Shown: piece by piece, positions 24,673 to 59,911 of the stretch
How positions within the stretch are numbered: the first letter of the stretch is position 1
How the letters are laid out: each line of letters opens with the position of its first letter
Assembly: GCA_963674965.2 (NCBI GenBank)
Contig: CAXXFL010000006.1
Span: forward strand, 1,088,001 to 1,152,000
Source: a bacterium
GTDB lineage: Bacteria > RBG-13-61-14 > DATKZS01
DNA: 64,000 nucleotides
Reading direction: 5' to 3'
Program-made: the position numbers and the translations under genes
The notes under the pieces: generated by a model
Database searches by the model: none
What the model was told of the DNA's origin: nothing
The model's input: only the letters and a program-made list of their open reading frames with translations

Positions 24673-24833
24673 GGGTCGCCCACGCATTTTTGCGTGGGTG
24701 AGCGAAGCGAACGGGCTATTAGGTTCGTAACCGAGGGCGTTTGGCGGCTTTCGAACGAAGAGCAAGAAGGCCCGGCGAGGGTAGGCATTCAGCCTGCGGC
24801 TTACGCCGCCCATGCATGATGCATGGGCGACCC
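24673..24833. repeat. REPIN-like doublet, family R, copy 1 (161 bp)
   Basis: gggtcgcccacgcatttttgcgtgggtg ... cgcccatgcatgatgcatgggcgaccc terminal inverted hairpins. Confidence 0.85.
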
Positions 24834-24875: not shown

Positions 24876-25036
24876 GGGCCGCCCACGCATTTTTGCGTGG
24901 GTGAGCGAAGCGAACGGGCTATTAGGTTCGGCACCGAGAACGTTTGGCGGCTTTCGAACGGTAGGAAAGGTGATCGGACGGCGGGAAGGATTAAACCCGC
25001 GGCTTACGCCGCCCATGCATGATGCATGGGCGACCC
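24876..25036. repeat. REPIN-like doublet, family R, copy 2 (161 bp, tandem with copy 1)
   Basis: Same ends and similar interior as 24673-24833. Confidence 0.85.
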
Positions 25037-25606: not shown

Positions 25607-27328
25607 TTATTTCTTGCTCCCGAAAATCTTGGACCACACGCCTTTTTGCTTGCGGTCCTGGTTCATGAACGAAAGTTCCCGCTTGGCCGACTGGTTGTCC
25701 GGATTGACGTCGATCGCGAGACGGAATCGCTCCTCCGCCTCCTTCACGTCCCCCTCCCGCTTGGCGATAACGCCCAGGTAGTAATGGGCGCGGTCCAACT
25801 CCGGATCGATCTTGACCGCCGACTTGAGATATCCCTTGGCCTCGGCCGAGTCCTTTGCACCGGCCCGGAATATGGACCATCCCAGGTTCATGAAGAAACT
25901 CGGGTCCTCGGGATCGAGTTCGATGCAGACCTCGTAAAGCTCGCGGGCGTAAAGCGGGGCGTTGTGCCTCATGTACCAGCGGCCGCGCTCGGCGGTCTTG
26001 CGGGCCAGCATCTTTCCAATGGCCGCGTTATAGGCGTGGGGCCTCTCCTCCGCCACCAAGCCCCTCTCGTACTCGATCCTTTTCTCCGGCCGGGCCAGCA
26101 CGTCGTGGGCGAACTTGAGCTTGTCGTGAAGCTCCCTGGCAAGTTCTTTCGACTTTCCCTCCTGGTTGTCCATCTCGAGGGCGTTCCTCTTCTCGATGAA
26201 GGCGCGGTTGATCTCGTCCAGGTCGCTGGATATGGTCAGTCCCAAAAGCTCGAAGAGGTCGGAGGCCTCTCCGATCTCCTGGGCCATGCGCCGAAGCCTG
26301 GGCGCCACGCCGGGTCCCGGGTCCGTTTCGGCTTCCTTTTCCTCGGCGGGCGCGCCTCTATTTTCGCCGGGGTCCGCGTCCACCCTGTCCGAGTTCGGCT
26401 TGGTCATAACGTAGCCCGTTTCGACGTCGGGCTTGGGCCGTCTCAGGTCCTGGATATCCTCGTCTTCCTCCTTTTGCTTCTCTTGTTCGGGTCCGCCCTC
26501 TTTCCTGGTTTCCTCCATCTCCGGGGGCAGGGAGGCGTCCGCGTCCAAACAGGGCACCTCGTCGAAGACCTCGTCCTCCGATATCTCGGGCATGAACACT
26601 AAAAGCCGCGTCACCAGTAAAAGATACATCAGGTTGATGGCCTGGTTTATGTCCCCGAGATCGTTCTGCATGACCTGCATGGCCTGACCCACCCCGATCT
26701 CGCGATTGAACAGGTCCAGGACGTCGCTGTGCTTATAAAGGGGGTCGGGAAGAAGGAAGTAGTCACGAACGTCCTGGTTGATCTTCACCTTCCTTTGGTC
26801 CACGGCGAAAATCTCGTTGGCCAGGTCGTAAGAATGGAACCTGGCCATGCCCTCGTAGATGATCTCGAGCGGGTTCAGGTCGTACATGGGAAGGTCCAGG
26901 AAGACCTCCTCCCCGTCCGTGAAGGTATAGCGGCCGCTCCTGTAACCGCAGGCCTTGATGATTATCTCCTTGGCCGACTTGGCCCGGTAGTAATAAATCT
27001 GGGACTCCGTAACCTCGAGGATGTCCTGCAGGCACTGGACAACGTCGATCGACTTCTCCTTGGCCAGTTGCTTGACCTGGAGCACGTCCTCAACCGGCAG
27101 GCGGCTGTCCGCCACCATCACGTCAAGAACCGAGTGGCCCGGGCTGGTGGTCTCGGAATAAACGGGAATGCCGTTAAAGGCGAAAATCGAGGAGCGGATG
27201 CTGCCCGGATAAAGGTCCAGGCGGCCCGTCTTCCTGCTGGCGAAGAGGACCCCCAACAGCTTGATCATCGAGTGACTCGAAAGGTCGCCCTCATGCACTA
27301 TCTCTGAAGTTAAATCACAAAGGTTCAT
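25607..27328 (-). CDS. DUF4388-like + degenerate DnaJ + TPR domain protein
   Basis: RKTGRLDL N-terminal motif, acidic linker, LFELLG...AHDVLARPEKRIEYE J-like domain, C-terminal TPRs. Confidence 0.7.
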   Translation of the reverse strand: MNLCDLTSEIVHEGDLSSHSMIKLLGVLFASRKTGRLDLYPGSIRSSIFAFNGIPVYSETTSPGHSVLDVMVADSRLPVEDVLQVKQLAKEKSIDVVQCLQDILEVTESQIYYYRAKSAKEIIIKACGYRSGRYTFTDGEEVFLDLPMYDLNPLEIIYEGMARFHSYDLANEIFAVDQRKVKINQDVRDYFLLPDPLYKHSDVLDLFNREIGVGQAMQVMQNDLGDINQAINLMYLLLVTRLLVFMPEISEDEVFDEVPCLDADASLPPEMEETRKEGGPEQEKQKEEDEDIQDLRRPKPDVETGYVMTKPNSDRVDADPGENRGAPAEEKEAETDPGPGVAPRLRRMAQEIGEASDLFELLGLTISSDLDEINRAFIEKRNALEMDNQEGKSKELARELHDKLKFAHDVLARPEKRIEYERGLVAEERPHAYNAAIGKMLARKTAERGRWYMRHNAPLYARELYEVCIELDPEDPSFFMNLGWSIFRAGAKDSAEAKGYLKSAVKIDPELDRAHYYLGVIAKREGDVKEAEERFRLAIDVNPDNQSAKRELSFMNQDRKQKGVWSKIFGSKK

Positions 27329-27636
27329 GGATTTTTTCCGGTCCCCGAGTCGGCTAAACCCCGATCCGGCCCGCCGAGCGAAAGCTCCTTTTACAAAACC
27401 CTTCCTCTTCTCACGACTTAAAAGGTGATATTAATATAACGCCGTCAACTTGGCAAATTCCATGGTGAATGCCAATCACGGCCGAACCGCGGGCGCTCGG
27501 GTCGCTCCCCAAGTTTTTCCTATCCTCCCGTTGAAAAACCGATAATAATGGGTATTGACGATCATGGCAAACGGGCGTCTCACTTGCCATTCAAGCCGGA
27601 CGTTGCTATTTGCCAATGAGGGCGGGGCCTTTTTTC

Positions 27637-27665
27637 TTGACAAGGAAGCAAGGGCCGGATATATT
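27637..27665 (+). promoter_or_regulatory. Sigma70 promoter of the DAHP synthase leader
   Basis: TTGACA (27637-27642), 17-nt spacer, TATATT (27660-27665). Confidence 0.8.
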
Positions 27666-27671
27666 GGTAAT

Positions 27672-27773
27672 ATGATGATCGGAAACGATACGCGACCCGG
27701 ACGGCGATATTACGGCCGGCGATGGTATACCCGATTTACCTTTATCGGGTCCATCGGCGGGAGGGCTGTGTAA
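27672..27773 (+). CDS. Aromatic-amino-acid-rich attenuator leader peptide MMIGNDTRPGRRYYGRRWYTRFTFIGSIGGRAV
   Basis: Tyr13, Tyr14, Trp18, Tyr19, Phe22, Phe24 cluster; lies between promoter and terminator upstream of DAHP synthase. Confidence 0.75.
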   Translation: MMIGNDTRPGRRYYGRRWYTRFTFIGSIGGRAV

Positions 27774-27868
27774 ACTAGACCAACGAACGCCGGTGGACGA
27801 CAAGGAAAGGTCGCCGGCGAAAACATACTCGGGCCATGAAAACATGGCCGCCTCAACGAGGGGCTTAT

Positions 27869-27899
27869 AGCCGGCGCGGAAACGTGGCCGGCTTTTTTT
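27869..27899 (+). terminator. Attenuator terminator upstream of DAHP synthase
   Basis: agccggc-gcggaaacgtg-gccggct followed by a T run, ~150 nt before the start codon. Confidence 0.8.
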
Positions 27900-28050
27900 C
27901 GCCGGGAAAGAATTAAGGAGTAGAAAAATGGAGTCCCTCGGCGTGGTCCCTGGCAAAGCGTCTCCCGCGGTCCTTTCAGGGGCCGGAGAGCTTAAAATAT
28001 CGCTCGGCGAGAGCGGAGAAAAAATCAAGCTGGATTGGAGGAAAGGAAAA

Positions 28051-29085
28051 ATGATAGTGGTGATGAAGACCTCGATGACCAAGAACGAGCTGGACAACGT
28101 GACGGCGCGCATCAAGGAAATGGGCTACGCTCCCCACATCCTTCACGGGGTGGAGAGAAAGGTCATCGCCTGCATAGGCGACGAGAGGGGCAAGGCCCGT
28201 CTCCAGTCCCTCGAGACCATGCCGGGCGTGGACTCCGTGATGCCCATCTTGAAGCCCTACAAGCTGGCCAGCAAGGTGACCCATCCCAGAAAGAGCGCGG
28301 TCAAGGTCAAGGTCGCGGGCTCGAGAAGCTCGGTGACGGTGGGGGGCAAGAAGTTCGCCGTCATCGCCGGTCCCTGCTCGATCGAGAGCGAGGAGCAGCT
28401 TATAAGCACGGCCAGGGCCGTGAAGAAGGCGGGCGCCTGCATGATCCGGGGCGGGGCCTACAAGCCGAGGACCTCTCCCTACAGCTTCCAGGGCATGGAG
28501 GAGGACGGGCTCAAGCTCCTGGCCCTGGCCCGCGAGGAAACGGGACTGCCCGTGGTCACCGAGGTCATGAACCCCGGCGACGTGCTGTTAGTCGCCAAGT
28601 ACGCCGACGTCCTCCAGATCGGCGCCCGCAACGTGCAGAACTTCTCCCTTTTAAAGGCGGTGGGAAAGCTGGATAAGCCCATCTTCTTAAAGCGCGGCAT
28701 GATGACCACCATCGAGGAATTCCTCATGAGCGCCGAGTACATCATGAGCGAGGGCAACCAGAACGTCATGCTCTGCGAGCGGGGCATCCGGACCTTCGAG
28801 AAGGCCACTCGGAACACCCTCGACCTCTCGGCCGTGCCCGTGCTCCAGCGCGAGACCCACCTGCCCGTGGTGGTCGACCCCAGCCACGCCACCGGCCACT
28901 GGGAACTGGTCGAGCCCATGAGCCGGGCCGCCGCGGCCGCCGGCTGCGACGGCCTCATGGTCGAGGTCCACCCCACCCCCGAGAAGGCCTGGTCCGACGG
29001 CGGCCAGTCCCTCAAGTTCGACACCTTCGCCAAGATGATGAAAAACCTGGAGCCCTTCGTTAAGGCCATGAAGAGAACGATGTAA
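28051..29085 (+). CDS. aroF: 3-deoxy-7-phosphoheptulonate (DAHP) synthase, type I-beta with N-terminal ACT-like domain
   Basis: MIVVMK N-terminus, [47 protein letters not shown]. Confidence 0.95.
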
Positions 29086-29238
29086 GGAGGGGGACGTCCA
29101 GCGGGAGAGCGCAAGATTTTTTCATGAGGCGCGCGCGGGTGGCGCGGATCGCCTATCCGCGCGGCGAAAGCCGTTGGATTTTTATACGCGCCAGGCGGCC
29201 ACCGCCTCTTCCCGCGCCTTGGGCGCCAGGTAGCAAAG

Positions 29239-29474
29239 CTATCCGTCGTTTAAATATTTATAGAGATAGAACTGATATTTATTCGAGAATAATCGTAATT
29301 TATCATCAAATATCAGCGCGCGATATAAACTCCAGTCTTTTCTATCAATCGCCCATATAAAAACATTTTCGTTATCTCTAAGCAGGTATAGATAGTTTCC
29401 ATTAATATTACGCGTTTGAATTTGGTAATTTGACAATCTTTTATCATTTATCTCGCATCCAGGAACGCTAACTA
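29239..29474 (-). pseudogene. AT-rich C-terminal gene remnant of unknown function abutting the IS
   Basis: Open frame with no start of its own outside the IS; very low GC. Confidence 0.4.
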
Positions 29475-31238
29475 GTTTCTGTTGCACAACTGCTTAATGG
29501 CTTTCATTATGCGGTGCGGAGAGGATATGGACATGCAGATTTTCAGGGCGTCTATAAAGGACGGAAAAGATTTTAACGCTTTCAGGCGAGTTGAATGCCT
29601 GAGCCGGCCCTTTTCTATCCTTTCAAAAAACACCTCTCCTTTTGCTGTTTTTCATTTCCGTTTTTCATTGCCCCCACAGGGGCGCGCCCGGCGGCGGCTA
29701 AGTCAGCAGCGCGAGTTTTCGAAGGTTCCAGGCAAAGAACGAAAGACCCACCCAGGACTTGAAGCTCTCGAAACCTCTCCACAGGCATCGGCTCAGACCG
29801 AAGCCGCGAAGAAGGGCGGAAAGGCCGCCCTCGATCCCGGCCCGGAAGCGAAGAAGCTTCTTGAACCAGCGCTGACGCTCGTGCTCGATCCGCTCCGAAC
29901 TCCTTTTGCCGGGCTTGGGAATGGCCAGGCGCTCGATATAATAAGGACCTTCGGTCGCAAGCTTCTCATTGTCCTCATGATAGAAGCGGCGGTCGCCGGT
30001 AAACTCGCGTGGAGCCTTGCCGAACAGGCGGACGTGTTTTTGCAAAATGTCCTCGAAAAGGTCGGCGTCGGAAGGGTTGCCCTCGCACACTTTATATTGA
30101 AGCACAATCCCCGACCTTCCCGTCGCCGCCATCACCTTGTGACCGAACTCGGTCGGGCTCATGGTCTTGCCTCTCCGGATGATATCAACGTGCGGCTCGA
30201 AAACGGAAACCACCTTCTCTTGCGCGGGAACCTTCTCGCCTTTTATAACCCGCCGCTCGCACTGCTCGACGCACTGCTCAGAAAGCGGCAGGTAATGATC
30301 GAGTTCGCTCTTGATCATGGTTGCCAGGCCCGCATCGCTGAAATAAAGCTCTCCGCCTTTAAGGGCCTCGTCCAGCGCCTCCCGCGCCGAGCGGGCCATG
30401 GCCAAGATTTCCGCCGAAACCTTGAGAAGGTCCCGGTACCAGACCGCCCGTTTCTTCTCGATCCCTTTGCCTTTGCCCATGGCGATCTGGTAAGCGCGCT
30501 TCTTGGCCCGCCGAGTCCGGTCATGATATTCGAACCCGAGACCCGGCAGCTCCTTCCGCGCTCCTTTCATCAACCGGTCCAATACACGGATGCTGTCAAA
30601 AAGAAGCGAAGCGTCGGTCGGATAGTGGATGTTGGCCTCGGCCACCGCGGTGTCAGCGCGGACCGCCTCGCCGTCTTCTACTTTTTTTTTAATGGCCAGG
30701 GCCACGAGCATTTCGTTGATCCGCTCCCAGGTCTCGGGGCGGATGCGTTTTATCGCCCGCTCCAGGCTGCTGAAATGGGGAATGTCCCGCCCGAAGAACC
30801 TGGTGAACTTGCGGAAATTGTAATCGGAACCGAGGCGGTCGCCGAGTTCCCGGTAGGAATAACACTTGAGTTGATAGATGACCGCGCTCCTAAGGACCTG
30901 CTCGACGCTCATCCCCTCGGCGCCGGTCTCCTTGAGTCCGCTTTGGAGATCATCGGCAACAGCTTCCAGAATTTCCTTGGCCTCGTCGAGCGCTATGCTC
31001 ATCTTCTCAAGCTCAGTGTCTTGTTTGAAAAGATGGCCCGCTTTCAAAAATTCGTGGTCTTCAATGGTCATTTGCATTTTAATTTTCGGTCGCATTTTTC
31101 GCCCCCTTCACAGCATCCCGGCAAGTCAATCCTTGATTTTTCAAGGAGTTATTGTATCATATCAAGACCAAAAAGGGAAGCGAAAAATGCTTACAGCACA
31201 TTGTTTTTATTGGCTTTTTCTAGTTACGCAACTGGAAC
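29475..31238 (-). mobile_element. Insertion sequence (ISNCY/IS5-like), ~1.76 kb
   Basis: Imperfect terminal IRs gtttctgttgcacaact / agttacgcaactggaac; flanking direct repeat taacta at 29469-29474 and 31239-31244. Confidence 0.85.
29698..31095 (-). CDS. DDE transposase (ISNCY/IS5-like)
   Basis: RADTAVAEANIHYPTDASLL, EFGHK, GDRRF, RAGIEGGLS.L.RGFGL.RC motifs. Confidence 0.9.
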   Translation of the reverse strand: MRPKIKMQMTIEDHEFLKAGHLFKQDTELEKMSIALDEAKEILEAVADDLQSGLKETGAEGMSVEQVLRSAVIYQLKCYSYRELGDRLGSDYNFRKFTRFFGRDIPHFSSLERAIKRIRPETWERINEMLVALAIKKKVEDGEAVRADTAVAEANIHYPTDASLLFDSIRVLDRLMKGARKELPGLGFEYHDRTRRAKKRAYQIAMGKGKGIEKKRAVWYRDLLKVSAEILAMARSAREALDEALKGGELYFSDAGLATMIKSELDHYLPLSEQCVEQCERRVIKGEKVPAQEKVVSVFEPHVDIIRRGKTMSPTEFGHKVMAATGRSGIVLQYKVCEGNPSDADLFEDILQKHVRLFGKAPREFTGDRRFYHEDNEKLATEGPYYIERLAIPKPGKRSSERIEHERQRWFKKLLRFRAGIEGGLSALLRGFGLSRCLWRGFESFKSWVGLSFFAWNLRKLALLT

Positions 31239-59341: not shown

Positions 59342-59911
59342 TTATTTTGGGCCGTCAAATATCATCCTGGTGTAGGGGCGAGTCTCGACGTCTTCCTCGC
59401 CGATCCCCAGCTCGCGGAAAATTTTCTTGATCCGTTTCCATGCGCCACCTATTTCATCTTCATTCGCGACCATGATCTCGATCTCGACAAACCATCCCAG
59501 CCCTCCGATCTCGATCAGCTCTATCCTTGCCGGCCCATCAGGTTTATCGGAAGGTCCCGCCTCGATTATATACCTTTTTCCTTTTTTGGTTTTCTCGACC
59601 AGGGCCGCGAACCCGAAGGACCTTATGAAAGCAATAAAGGCCGCCGTGTCGCTTACCTCGAACTCGACCTCGGCGCAGGCCTCGCCGCCGCCGTTGGCGA
59701 TTTTGTCCTTCACCGTCACGAGGCTGTTTTTTCCGCTCATGCGCAGTCGGAACCTATTATAGGTGTAGCCTTCAATGGATTCCGGCTTGAAATAGACGTC
59801 GTGGTAATCGATTTCCTCAAGGAAGCGGGCATTTTTCGCGAGCCAGGAGCGTATGGACTCCGGGTCCGATATCCTCGCCTTGATCTCGACCTCGATGGGG
59901 CGTTCGTTCAT
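59342..59911 (-). CDS. cyaB: CYTH-domain protein / class IV adenylate cyclase
   Basis: EVEIKA, D.YF, RLR, K.K, GLG.FVEIE, PY motifs. Confidence 0.8.
   Translation of the reverse strand: MNERPIEVEIKARISDPESIRSWLAKNARFLEEIDYHDVYFKPESIEGYTYNRFRLRMSGKNSLVTVKDKIANGGGEACAEVEFEVSDTAAFIAFIRSFGFAALVEKTKKGKRYIIEAGPSDKPDGPARIELIEIGGLGWFVEIEIMVANEDEIGGAWKRIKKIFRELGIGEEDVETRPYTRMIFDGPK

Follow-up and report, generated by a model that had tools for sequence, protein, structure and literature searches.

Most textbook attenuators respond to a single amino acid and control a terminal branch, and the attenuator leader transcripts of Corynebacterium, the subject of Neshat's 2014 work, are reportedly leaderless. 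How might a device of this kind be built for the enzyme at the common entry step to the aromatic amino acids? The question is raised by a 64,000-nucleotide stretch of bacterial DNA, referred to here as the window (GTDB lineage Bacteria; RBG-13-61-14; DATKZS01; GenBank assembly GCA_963674965.2, contig CAXXFL010000006.1, positions 1,088,001 to 1,152,000 of the forward strand), in which a short open reading frame (ORF) rich in aromatic codons and a series of competing RNA helices precede a gene for 3-deoxy-D-arabino-heptulosonate 7-phosphate (DAHP) synthase.

Several described systems bear on this arrangement. In Corynebacterium glutamicum the aroR leader, with its Phe-Tyr-Phe run, attenuates the DAHP synthase gene aroF (PMC4046766, PMC11802643, PMC7356990), and ribosome stalling on it raises read-through (Mentz 2013, PMC4046766; Neshat 2014 as cited in PMC11802643 and PMC7356990). 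The his leader of E. coli and Salmonella contains six segments, which pair either as AB, CD and EF or as BC and DE (PMC10989985). In mycobacteria, leaderless short ORFs rich in Cys codons are reported to act as attenuators (bioRxiv 10.1101/834739).

An earlier note on the window, made from its letters, had read the leader as an attenuator of six segments with a leader peptide carrying Tyr, Trp and Phe codons. The core of that reading gains support from two close relatives and from a much larger set of related loci, in which 52 of 75 carry a comparable leader ORF and 50 of those 52 a terminator behind it. The leader is thus likely, at a good level of confidence, to be a ribosome-mediated transcription attenuator of the monocistronic DAHP synthase gene that senses the supply of aromatic aminoacyl-tRNA. 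The component parts exist, they exceed what chance would give, and relatives retain them together with the gene.

The gene, the promoter and the leader peptide

The identity of the regulated gene, given as DAHP synthase in the earlier note, is agreed upon by three sources. Pfam finds DAHP_synth_1 together with the FXD domain, with PF18152 at 5e-20; the NCBIfam model NF006421 scores 499.5 bits against a cutoff of 335; and PDB entry 1rzm matches residues 1-339 with an E value of 3e-105. Homology places the start at ATG 28051, where all 80 of 80 homologues and the family profile begin, and not at the in-frame ATG 27928 (Table 1). The gene is monocistronic in the window, and no further aromatic-pathway gene was found among the 36 ORFs scanned there.

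Upstream, the TTGACA-17-TATATT promoter is where the earlier note had put it, and it is the only sigma-70-like site that the promoter scan returns on the + strand of 27000-29500; on both strands of this interval there are three such sites against 0.7 expected. The same scan, limited to sigma-70-like sites, gives no further + strand promoter in the interval from terminator to gene. The -10 hexamer ends at 27665 and is separated from ATG 27672 by a gap of 6 nt, so a transcript starting 7 nt past the -10 hexamer would begin on the A of that ATG. A Shine-Dalgarno sequence was looked for before ATG 27672 and none was found. The leader ORF is probably translated from a leaderless transcript, a mode of initiation that is plausible given that the spacing is kept in two of the three close relatives.

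The leader ORF has the 33 codons previously described, and the six aromatic ones, Y13, Y14, W18, Y19, F22 and F24, fall within 12 positions. Of 5000 dinucleotide shuffles of the ORF, 8 show clustering to this degree, and the clustering is specific to the frame, with frames 2 and 3 reaching 0 and 3. Across the whole window, on both strands, four small ORFs attain it.

The competing helices

Fundamental to any attenuator is a set of mutually exclusive RNA helices, and here the segments can pair in a chain that leads from the aromatic codons to the terminator. By RNAduplex the whole of segment 1 pairs with the whole of segment 2 at -26.0, helix 2:3 (27749-59 with 27788-98) has -23.5 and helix 4:5 (27812-18 with 27870-76) has -16.9, all three lying where they had been proposed; an independent repeat search also lists 1:2 and 4:5. 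Helix 3:4, likewise proposed, is present and extends further than had been described, to 9 pairs between 27788-96 and 27811-19 (-17.5). The terminator hairpin and U tract put forward as 5:6 were found as well. The stop codon of the leader ORF (27771-73) is placed within the loop of helix 2:3. One more helix competes with these, between 27715-23 and 27810-18, with 9 pairs and -19.8 kcal/mol by RNAduplex.

The structure exceeds chance. The leader region folds better than 200 of 200 shuffles (z -4.85), and its 10 GCCGG/CCGGC sites are the highest density of the 64 kb, equalled in 2 of 3189 sliding windows. A chain was scored when the 3' arm of each helix overlaps the 5' arm of the next, when it ends on the 5' arm of the terminator and when every helix is at least as strong as the one observed; for the window this occurs in 0 of 500 shuffles with three links and in 12 of 500 with four. 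A search of 27300-28200 against 4227 Rfam families at permissive thresholds gave nothing better than E 1.1, and so no match to a known leader, T-box or riboswitch family.

A further complementarity is seen around the terminator. Segment 4 with its A-run (27814-27823) is perfectly complementary over 10 nt to the U tract and the CGCCGG that follows it (27896-27905), and such a helix would enclose the terminator in read-through transcripts.

Table 1. Features of the leader and its gene in the window (window coordinates), followed by two groups of related loci
Feature	Position	Strand	Basis
Sigma-70-type promoter, TTGACA-17-TATATT	27637-27665	+	11/12 consensus matches
Leader ORF, 33 codons and TAA, predicted product MMIGNDTRPGRRYYGRRWYTRFTFIGSIGGRAV	27672-27773	+	Translation
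Aromatic codon cluster YYGRRWYTRFTF (TAT TAC ... TGG TAT ... TTT ... TTT), proposed regulatory codons	27708-27743	+	
Segment 1, within the aromatic codons; partner segment 2	27716-27735	+	RNAduplex, inverted repeats
Segment 2; partner segment 1 or, through 27749-59, segment 3	27744-27760	+	RNAduplex
Segment 3; partner segment 2 (11 pairs, one G-U) or segment 4	27788-27798	+	Folding, RNAduplex
Segment 4; partner segment 3, 27715-23 or the terminator 5' arm (antiterminator)	27810-27820	+	RNAduplex, inverted repeats
Two small hairpins between segments 4 and 5, GGCCAUG-AAAA-CAUGGCC (27832-49) and GCCUC-AACGA-GGGGC (27850-64)	27832-27864	+	Folding
Intrinsic terminator, bulged hairpin 27869-27893 (segments 5 and 6) and U7 tract to 27899	27869-27899	+	-16.8 kcal/mol
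In-frame ATG with AAGGAG Shine-Dalgarno, 41 codons leading into the DAHP synthase frame, no stop	27928-28050	+	
Type I-beta DAHP synthase gene, 344 aa, N-terminal ferredoxin-like regulatory domain; regulated gene	28051-29085	+	Pfam, NCBIfam, PDB
Tandem-terminator relay loci L036, L039, L041, L044, L047, L053, L054, L057, L060-L063, L068, L069, L080			
Upstream tRNA loci L002, L013, L027, L034, L036, L041, L048, L062	~370-460 nt before the DAHP synthase start where measurable	-	

The leader in the closest relatives

A scan of genome contigs with the window's DAHP synthase provided 80 loci for comparison. The two closest by this enzyme are L001, from an uncultured deltaproteobacterial metagenome-assembled genome (MAG), with 75% identity, and L078, with 73%. 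Within the fetched flanks the window shares with either of them the leader and the DAHP synthase gene and no other gene, which means that the leader travels with the gene. In L078 the gene is again monocistronic.

L001 aligns with the window across promoter, ORF and terminator. Its promoter, TTGACA-17-CATAAT followed after 6 nt by ATG, has a geometry identical to that of the window, and no Shine-Dalgarno sequence precedes its leader ORF, which starts at L001:2701 and has 29 codons (MLDKAVILCAKRFSVRGWCGYPFIFTGVR), five of them aromatic. Trp occupies codon 18 in both leaders, the aromatic codons of L001 lie over segment 1 as well, and both stop codons fall within or on segment 2. Because the MAFFT alignment of the two leaders falls out of structural register past about column 100, no pair counts were taken from it and the helices were instead found separately in each sequence. 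On this basis L001 has the full chain, 1:2 at -22.7, 2:3 at -24.9, 3:4 at -24.6, 4:5 at -17.5 and the terminator at -15.7, which 0 of 500 shuffles match for three links and 1 of 500 for four. The helices are kept despite differing sequence; for instance, the outer part of 1:2 pairs CGAUGG with CCAUCG in the window and GCGG with CCGC in L001. The minimum free energy (MFE) fold of L001 consists of 1:2, 3:4 and 5:6, and at the site matching the small hairpins of the window it has a hairpin followed by U5. The aromatic codons and helix chain, whose conservation in relatives the earlier note had named as a check, are thus both retained in L001. This homology came to light by reading and aligning the sequences, as a blastn search of the leader against the 80 loci returned no meaningful match.

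L078 presents a different design. Of the 32 codons in its leader, 6 are for Trp and 2 each for Phe and Tyr, and its RNA is a textbook four-segment attenuator of helices 1:2, 2:3 and 3:4.

A wider class of aromatic leaders

How far does this type of control extend? Five of the 80 loci have too little upstream sequence to judge. Among the remaining 75 (at least 400 nt upstream), 51 have an ORF of 15-45 codons with at least 6 Phe, Trp or Tyr in 12 residues, compared with 45 of 2130 control tiles taken elsewhere in the same loci. A search of the 450 nt upstream finds a mini-ORF rich in these residues at 52 of 75 loci (at least 200 nt upstream), belonging to Desulfuromonadales, Geobacteraceae, Syntrophaceae and other Thermodesulfobacteriota MAGs; the Nitrospinota and Rokubacteria loci gave no such mini-ORF. 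Of the 52 leaders, 44 contain Phe as well as Trp and Tyr, and a regular-expression check finds a Shine-Dalgarno-like site in 28. A hairpin with a T-run follows the ORF in 50 of these 52 loci; among the 23 loci that lack such an ORF, 3 have the hairpin and T-run, including L001, where the ORF falls short with its five aromatic codons.

The RNA of the class covaries. Base pairs were counted over 34 of the 52 leaders, picked by a regular expression for the first terminator (the outer stem is hence fixed by selection, and 18 leaders are omitted). Pairing in this set amounts to 87.0% for the terminator, where 7 of 13 pairs are altered on both sides, and to 88.1% for the antiterminator, where 3 of 10 are; slid controls for the two give 20-51%. 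The antiterminator joins the conserved 3' end of the ORF (CCG UCU GCC CGG GG) to the 5' arm of the terminator. Antiterminator and terminator thus covary in the class. The class leader peptides end in an RPSARG-like motif (e.g. L020:1174-1302 and L054:2780-2906), and this tail is probably conserved because the RNA encoding it is the antiterminator strand that pairs with the terminator 5' arm.

In many loci of the class a further terminator is found, about 40-60 nt ahead of the DAHP synthase gene. At 15 relay loci (Table 1), picked by a second regular expression and with the row for L080 misaligned in this region, the tandem terminators lie about 130 to 30 nt before the gene start, and the 3' arm of the first terminator can pair with the second over its 5' half and loop. 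This relay pairing reaches 93.4%, against 45-62% for slid controls, and includes compensatory CG to UA swaps. Since the first terminator can in this way pair with the second, one stalled ribosome could disarm both, and the class thus relies on a relay of hairpins like that which the earlier note had proposed for the window.

A covariance model, R1, was built from the 34 leaders and used to search 42 of 81 sources. It finds 17 class loci on which it was not trained and matches L078:2858-2974 at 32.3 bits, and it finds neither L001 nor the leaderless-looking loci. That R1 matches L078, and neither the window nor L001, suggests that the window/L001 type diverged from the class type. Rfam searches of 18 related loci returned tRNAs only. 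Many Desulfuromonadales loci have, just upstream of the leader, a tRNA gene (Rfam tRNA, about 70 bits) that is encoded on the other strand (Table 1), and this tRNA-leader neighbourhood is a conserved local synteny.

Proposed mechanism and alternatives

How, then, would the window leader work? From the arrangement of the parts we infer the start site, translation, stalling, the choice among competing helices and the response to each amino acid. The transcript would begin on or beside ATG 27672, and its leader of 33 codons would be translated. When charged Tyr, Trp or Phe tRNA is scarce, the ribosome would stall within codons 13-24; from the geometry, a ribosome with its A site on W18, Y19 or F22 should cover segment 1 and leave 27749-59 free. 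Segment 2 would then pair with segment 3, freeing segment 4 for the 4:5 helix and allowing RNA polymerase to read into the gene. With an ample supply the ribosome would reach the stop codon in the 2:3 loop, or leave the RNA, such that segment 4 is captured by segment 3 or, after release, by 27715-23 (1:2 could also form after release), and the 5:6 hairpin and U tract would form to give termination at about 27899. That one leader integrates all three amino acids in this way is plausible.

A number of observations weigh against this reading. Where transcription starts, where the RNA ends and whether the leader is translated are predictions from sequence. Equilibrium folding with the ribosome footprint masked, the calculation that had been suggested as a check, did not reproduce the predicted switch: the probability of the terminator is 0.94 without a ribosome, is 0.96, 0.61, 0.91, 0.95, 0.96 and 0.47 with the ribosome at Y13, Y14, W18, Y19, F22 and F24, respectively, and drops to 0.19 with the ribosome at the stop codon, which is opposite to the model. 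In these calculations the 5' arm of the terminator has an upstream partner in every state before segment 6 emerges (P 0.75-0.89). A greedy co-transcriptional simulation gave read-through of the window leader at W18 and the stop codon only, and never of L001, although this procedure, with its irreversible helices, is crude and made erratic by early spurious helices, and is given no weight either way. The terminator hairpin, having a bulged stem, is not listed by a simple terminator scan, and its 5' arm also pairs with 27713-25 and 27754-70 at -16.4 (RNAduplex). The palindrome GCCGGC recurs and so many pairings compete that the wiring is ambiguous. With 6 of 33 codons aromatic the window leader is poorer than the class leaders, and its best R1 match reaches 7.7 bits (E 0.026) over the terminator only; as R1 misses the window as well as L001, these two are related to the class distantly at best. 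The comparison covers only two close relatives, and the promoter of L078 was not called by the promoter scan. Between terminator and gene lie 151 nt with an additional in-frame ATG. Finally, aroR has a Tyr codon and yet a response is reported for Phe and none for Tyr (PMC11802643).

Does the same attenuator need six segments? It could instead be a four-segment switch in which 27715-23 captures segment 4, helix 2:3 is a constant scaffold and the choice between 4:5 and 5:6 decides the outcome. The MFE structure, both of the full leader and of growing transcripts, is what this would predict, containing 27715-23 paired with 27810-18, 2:3 and the terminator, and L078 offers a four-segment precedent. 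L001, however, has no counterpart of the 27715-23 helix; it has the strong 3:4 helix and an MFE fold that includes it, and the class relays through two hairpins. The four-segment wiring is consequently regarded as possible but unlikely. At the level of the individual helices the indications differ, with L001 and the class favouring the relay and the predicted MFE of the window preferring 27715-23:27810-18 plus 2:3.

More distant from an aromatic attenuator sensed by ribosomes are two further explanations. One keeps the attenuator and has a protein or small ligand set the switch, the aromatic ORF being incidental. The strong structure of the leader RNA, the missing Shine-Dalgarno sequence and the failure of masked folding to give a switch would all suit it, and it is nevertheless quite improbable, for no Rfam family matches, the aromatic cluster is frame-specific and rare by chance, that cluster recurs in L001, L078 and the 52 of 75 loci in quite different nucleotide sequence, and the stop codon is set in or on segment 2 in the window and L001. 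The other takes the unit as a separate gene of about 230 nt for a small RNA or small protein, with DAHP synthase expressed from another promoter or by constitutive leak-through. A complete promoter-to-terminator unit is indeed present, the gap of 151 nt ahead of the gene has a second strong Shine-Dalgarno and ATG (27928), and attenuator RNAs may act in trans, as reported for rnTrpL of Sinorhizobium. Against this, 27000-29500 has no other sigma-70-like promoter on the + strand, the unit remains beside DAHP synthase in relatives while all other neighbours change, and the antiterminator logic is conserved, which leaves a separate gene very improbable. The ribosome-mediated attenuator of DAHP synthase is hence retained as the preferred reading.

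Neighbouring features

The 123-nt stretch 27928-28050 is missing from L001 and L078 in the alignment, and the family profile starts at residue 42 of the longer form that begins at ATG 27928. Folding of 27900-28065 in search of a second element found it unstructured (z +0.74). This stretch may extend the N terminus of the enzyme, represent another upstream ORF joined to the gene in frame, or serve as a spacer.

Directly 3' of the DAHP synthase gene, on the - strand, is a DDE transposase gene of an insertion sequence element (29698-31095). Elsewhere in the window two direct copies of a 161-nt element (24673-24833 and 24876-25036), 85% identical and 203 nt apart, are located between a FadL-like outer-membrane gene and hisI. 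A second small ORF rich in aromatic codons, at 59527-59628, which is one of the four that attain the clustering of the leader ORF, was dismissed as it lies inside a CYTH-domain gene on the opposite strand.

Significance and comparison with known systems

A broader interpretation, put forward tentatively and with somewhat less than even confidence, is that the window leader belongs to a broad, uncatalogued family of Phe/Trp/Tyr attenuators that guard the shikimate entry enzyme through a hairpin relay, of which the window and L001 would be a leaderless branch sensing three amino acids. If true, the family would range over Desulfuromonadales, Syntrophaceae and neighbouring uncultured lineages, and its hallmark would be that a single stalled ribosome inactivates two terminators in a row, or a decoy hairpin together with one terminator. 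The comparative set, with its 52 of 75 loci, covarying antiterminator and terminator and relay-linked tandem terminators, is sufficient to define an RNA family absent from Rfam, and such a family would help to annotate the small ORFs and 5' leaders of uncultured anaerobes better. Because the sensor stands on a common entry step and has codons for all three aromatics, it could show one leader weighing several inputs. The main interest lies in the breadth of the uncatalogued family and in the question of multi-amino-acid sensing, and specialists may find the result tidy rather than startling.

In the literature searched, which left most subscription journals outside its scope, an aromatic leader before DAHP synthase in delta-proteobacteria or their relatives is undescribed, and the available portions of PMC545781, PMC1173090, PMC4833913 and PMC5343134 describe no such leader. 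The functional resemblance to aroR-aroF, judged from published descriptions, consists of a short leader peptide with aromatic codons before a DAHP synthase gene; Corynebacterium belongs to a different phylum, and those descriptions report no Trp codon in aroR. The gamma-proteobacterial trpL and pheL leaders similarly place end-product codons in a leader ORF and set an antiterminator against a terminator. They differ in having four segments, in sensing one amino acid each and in serving terminal-branch genes rather than the common entry step, and the window matches neither Rfam Trp_leader nor Phe_leader.

The his leader is close in architecture, as three hairpins, the last of them the terminator, alternate with two shifted ones when a ribosome covers the first segment. 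It is otherwise distinct, with seven His codons for a single amino acid, Shine-Dalgarno-dependent initiation and no sequence similarity to the window, which has no match to Rfam His_leader. The class leaders share with the window the same enzyme gene, an aromatic mini-ORF, an antiterminator and terminator, and a two-hairpin relay, whereas they start well downstream of a promoter-like TTGACA, unlike those of the window and L001, and their first relay hairpin is itself a terminator. The mycobacterial Cys-rich ORFs are reportedly similar in being short and leaderless, in sensing an amino acid through the codons they contain and in controlling the genes that follow, with the difference that cysteine is sensed and that the hosts are Actinobacteria. 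Given aroR-aroF, the six-segment his leader and the leaderless short-ORF attenuators of mycobacteria, each feature of the window leader already has a precedent. The mechanism is thus most likely a classical one, and what is new is the place in which it is used and the uncatalogued family of leaders.

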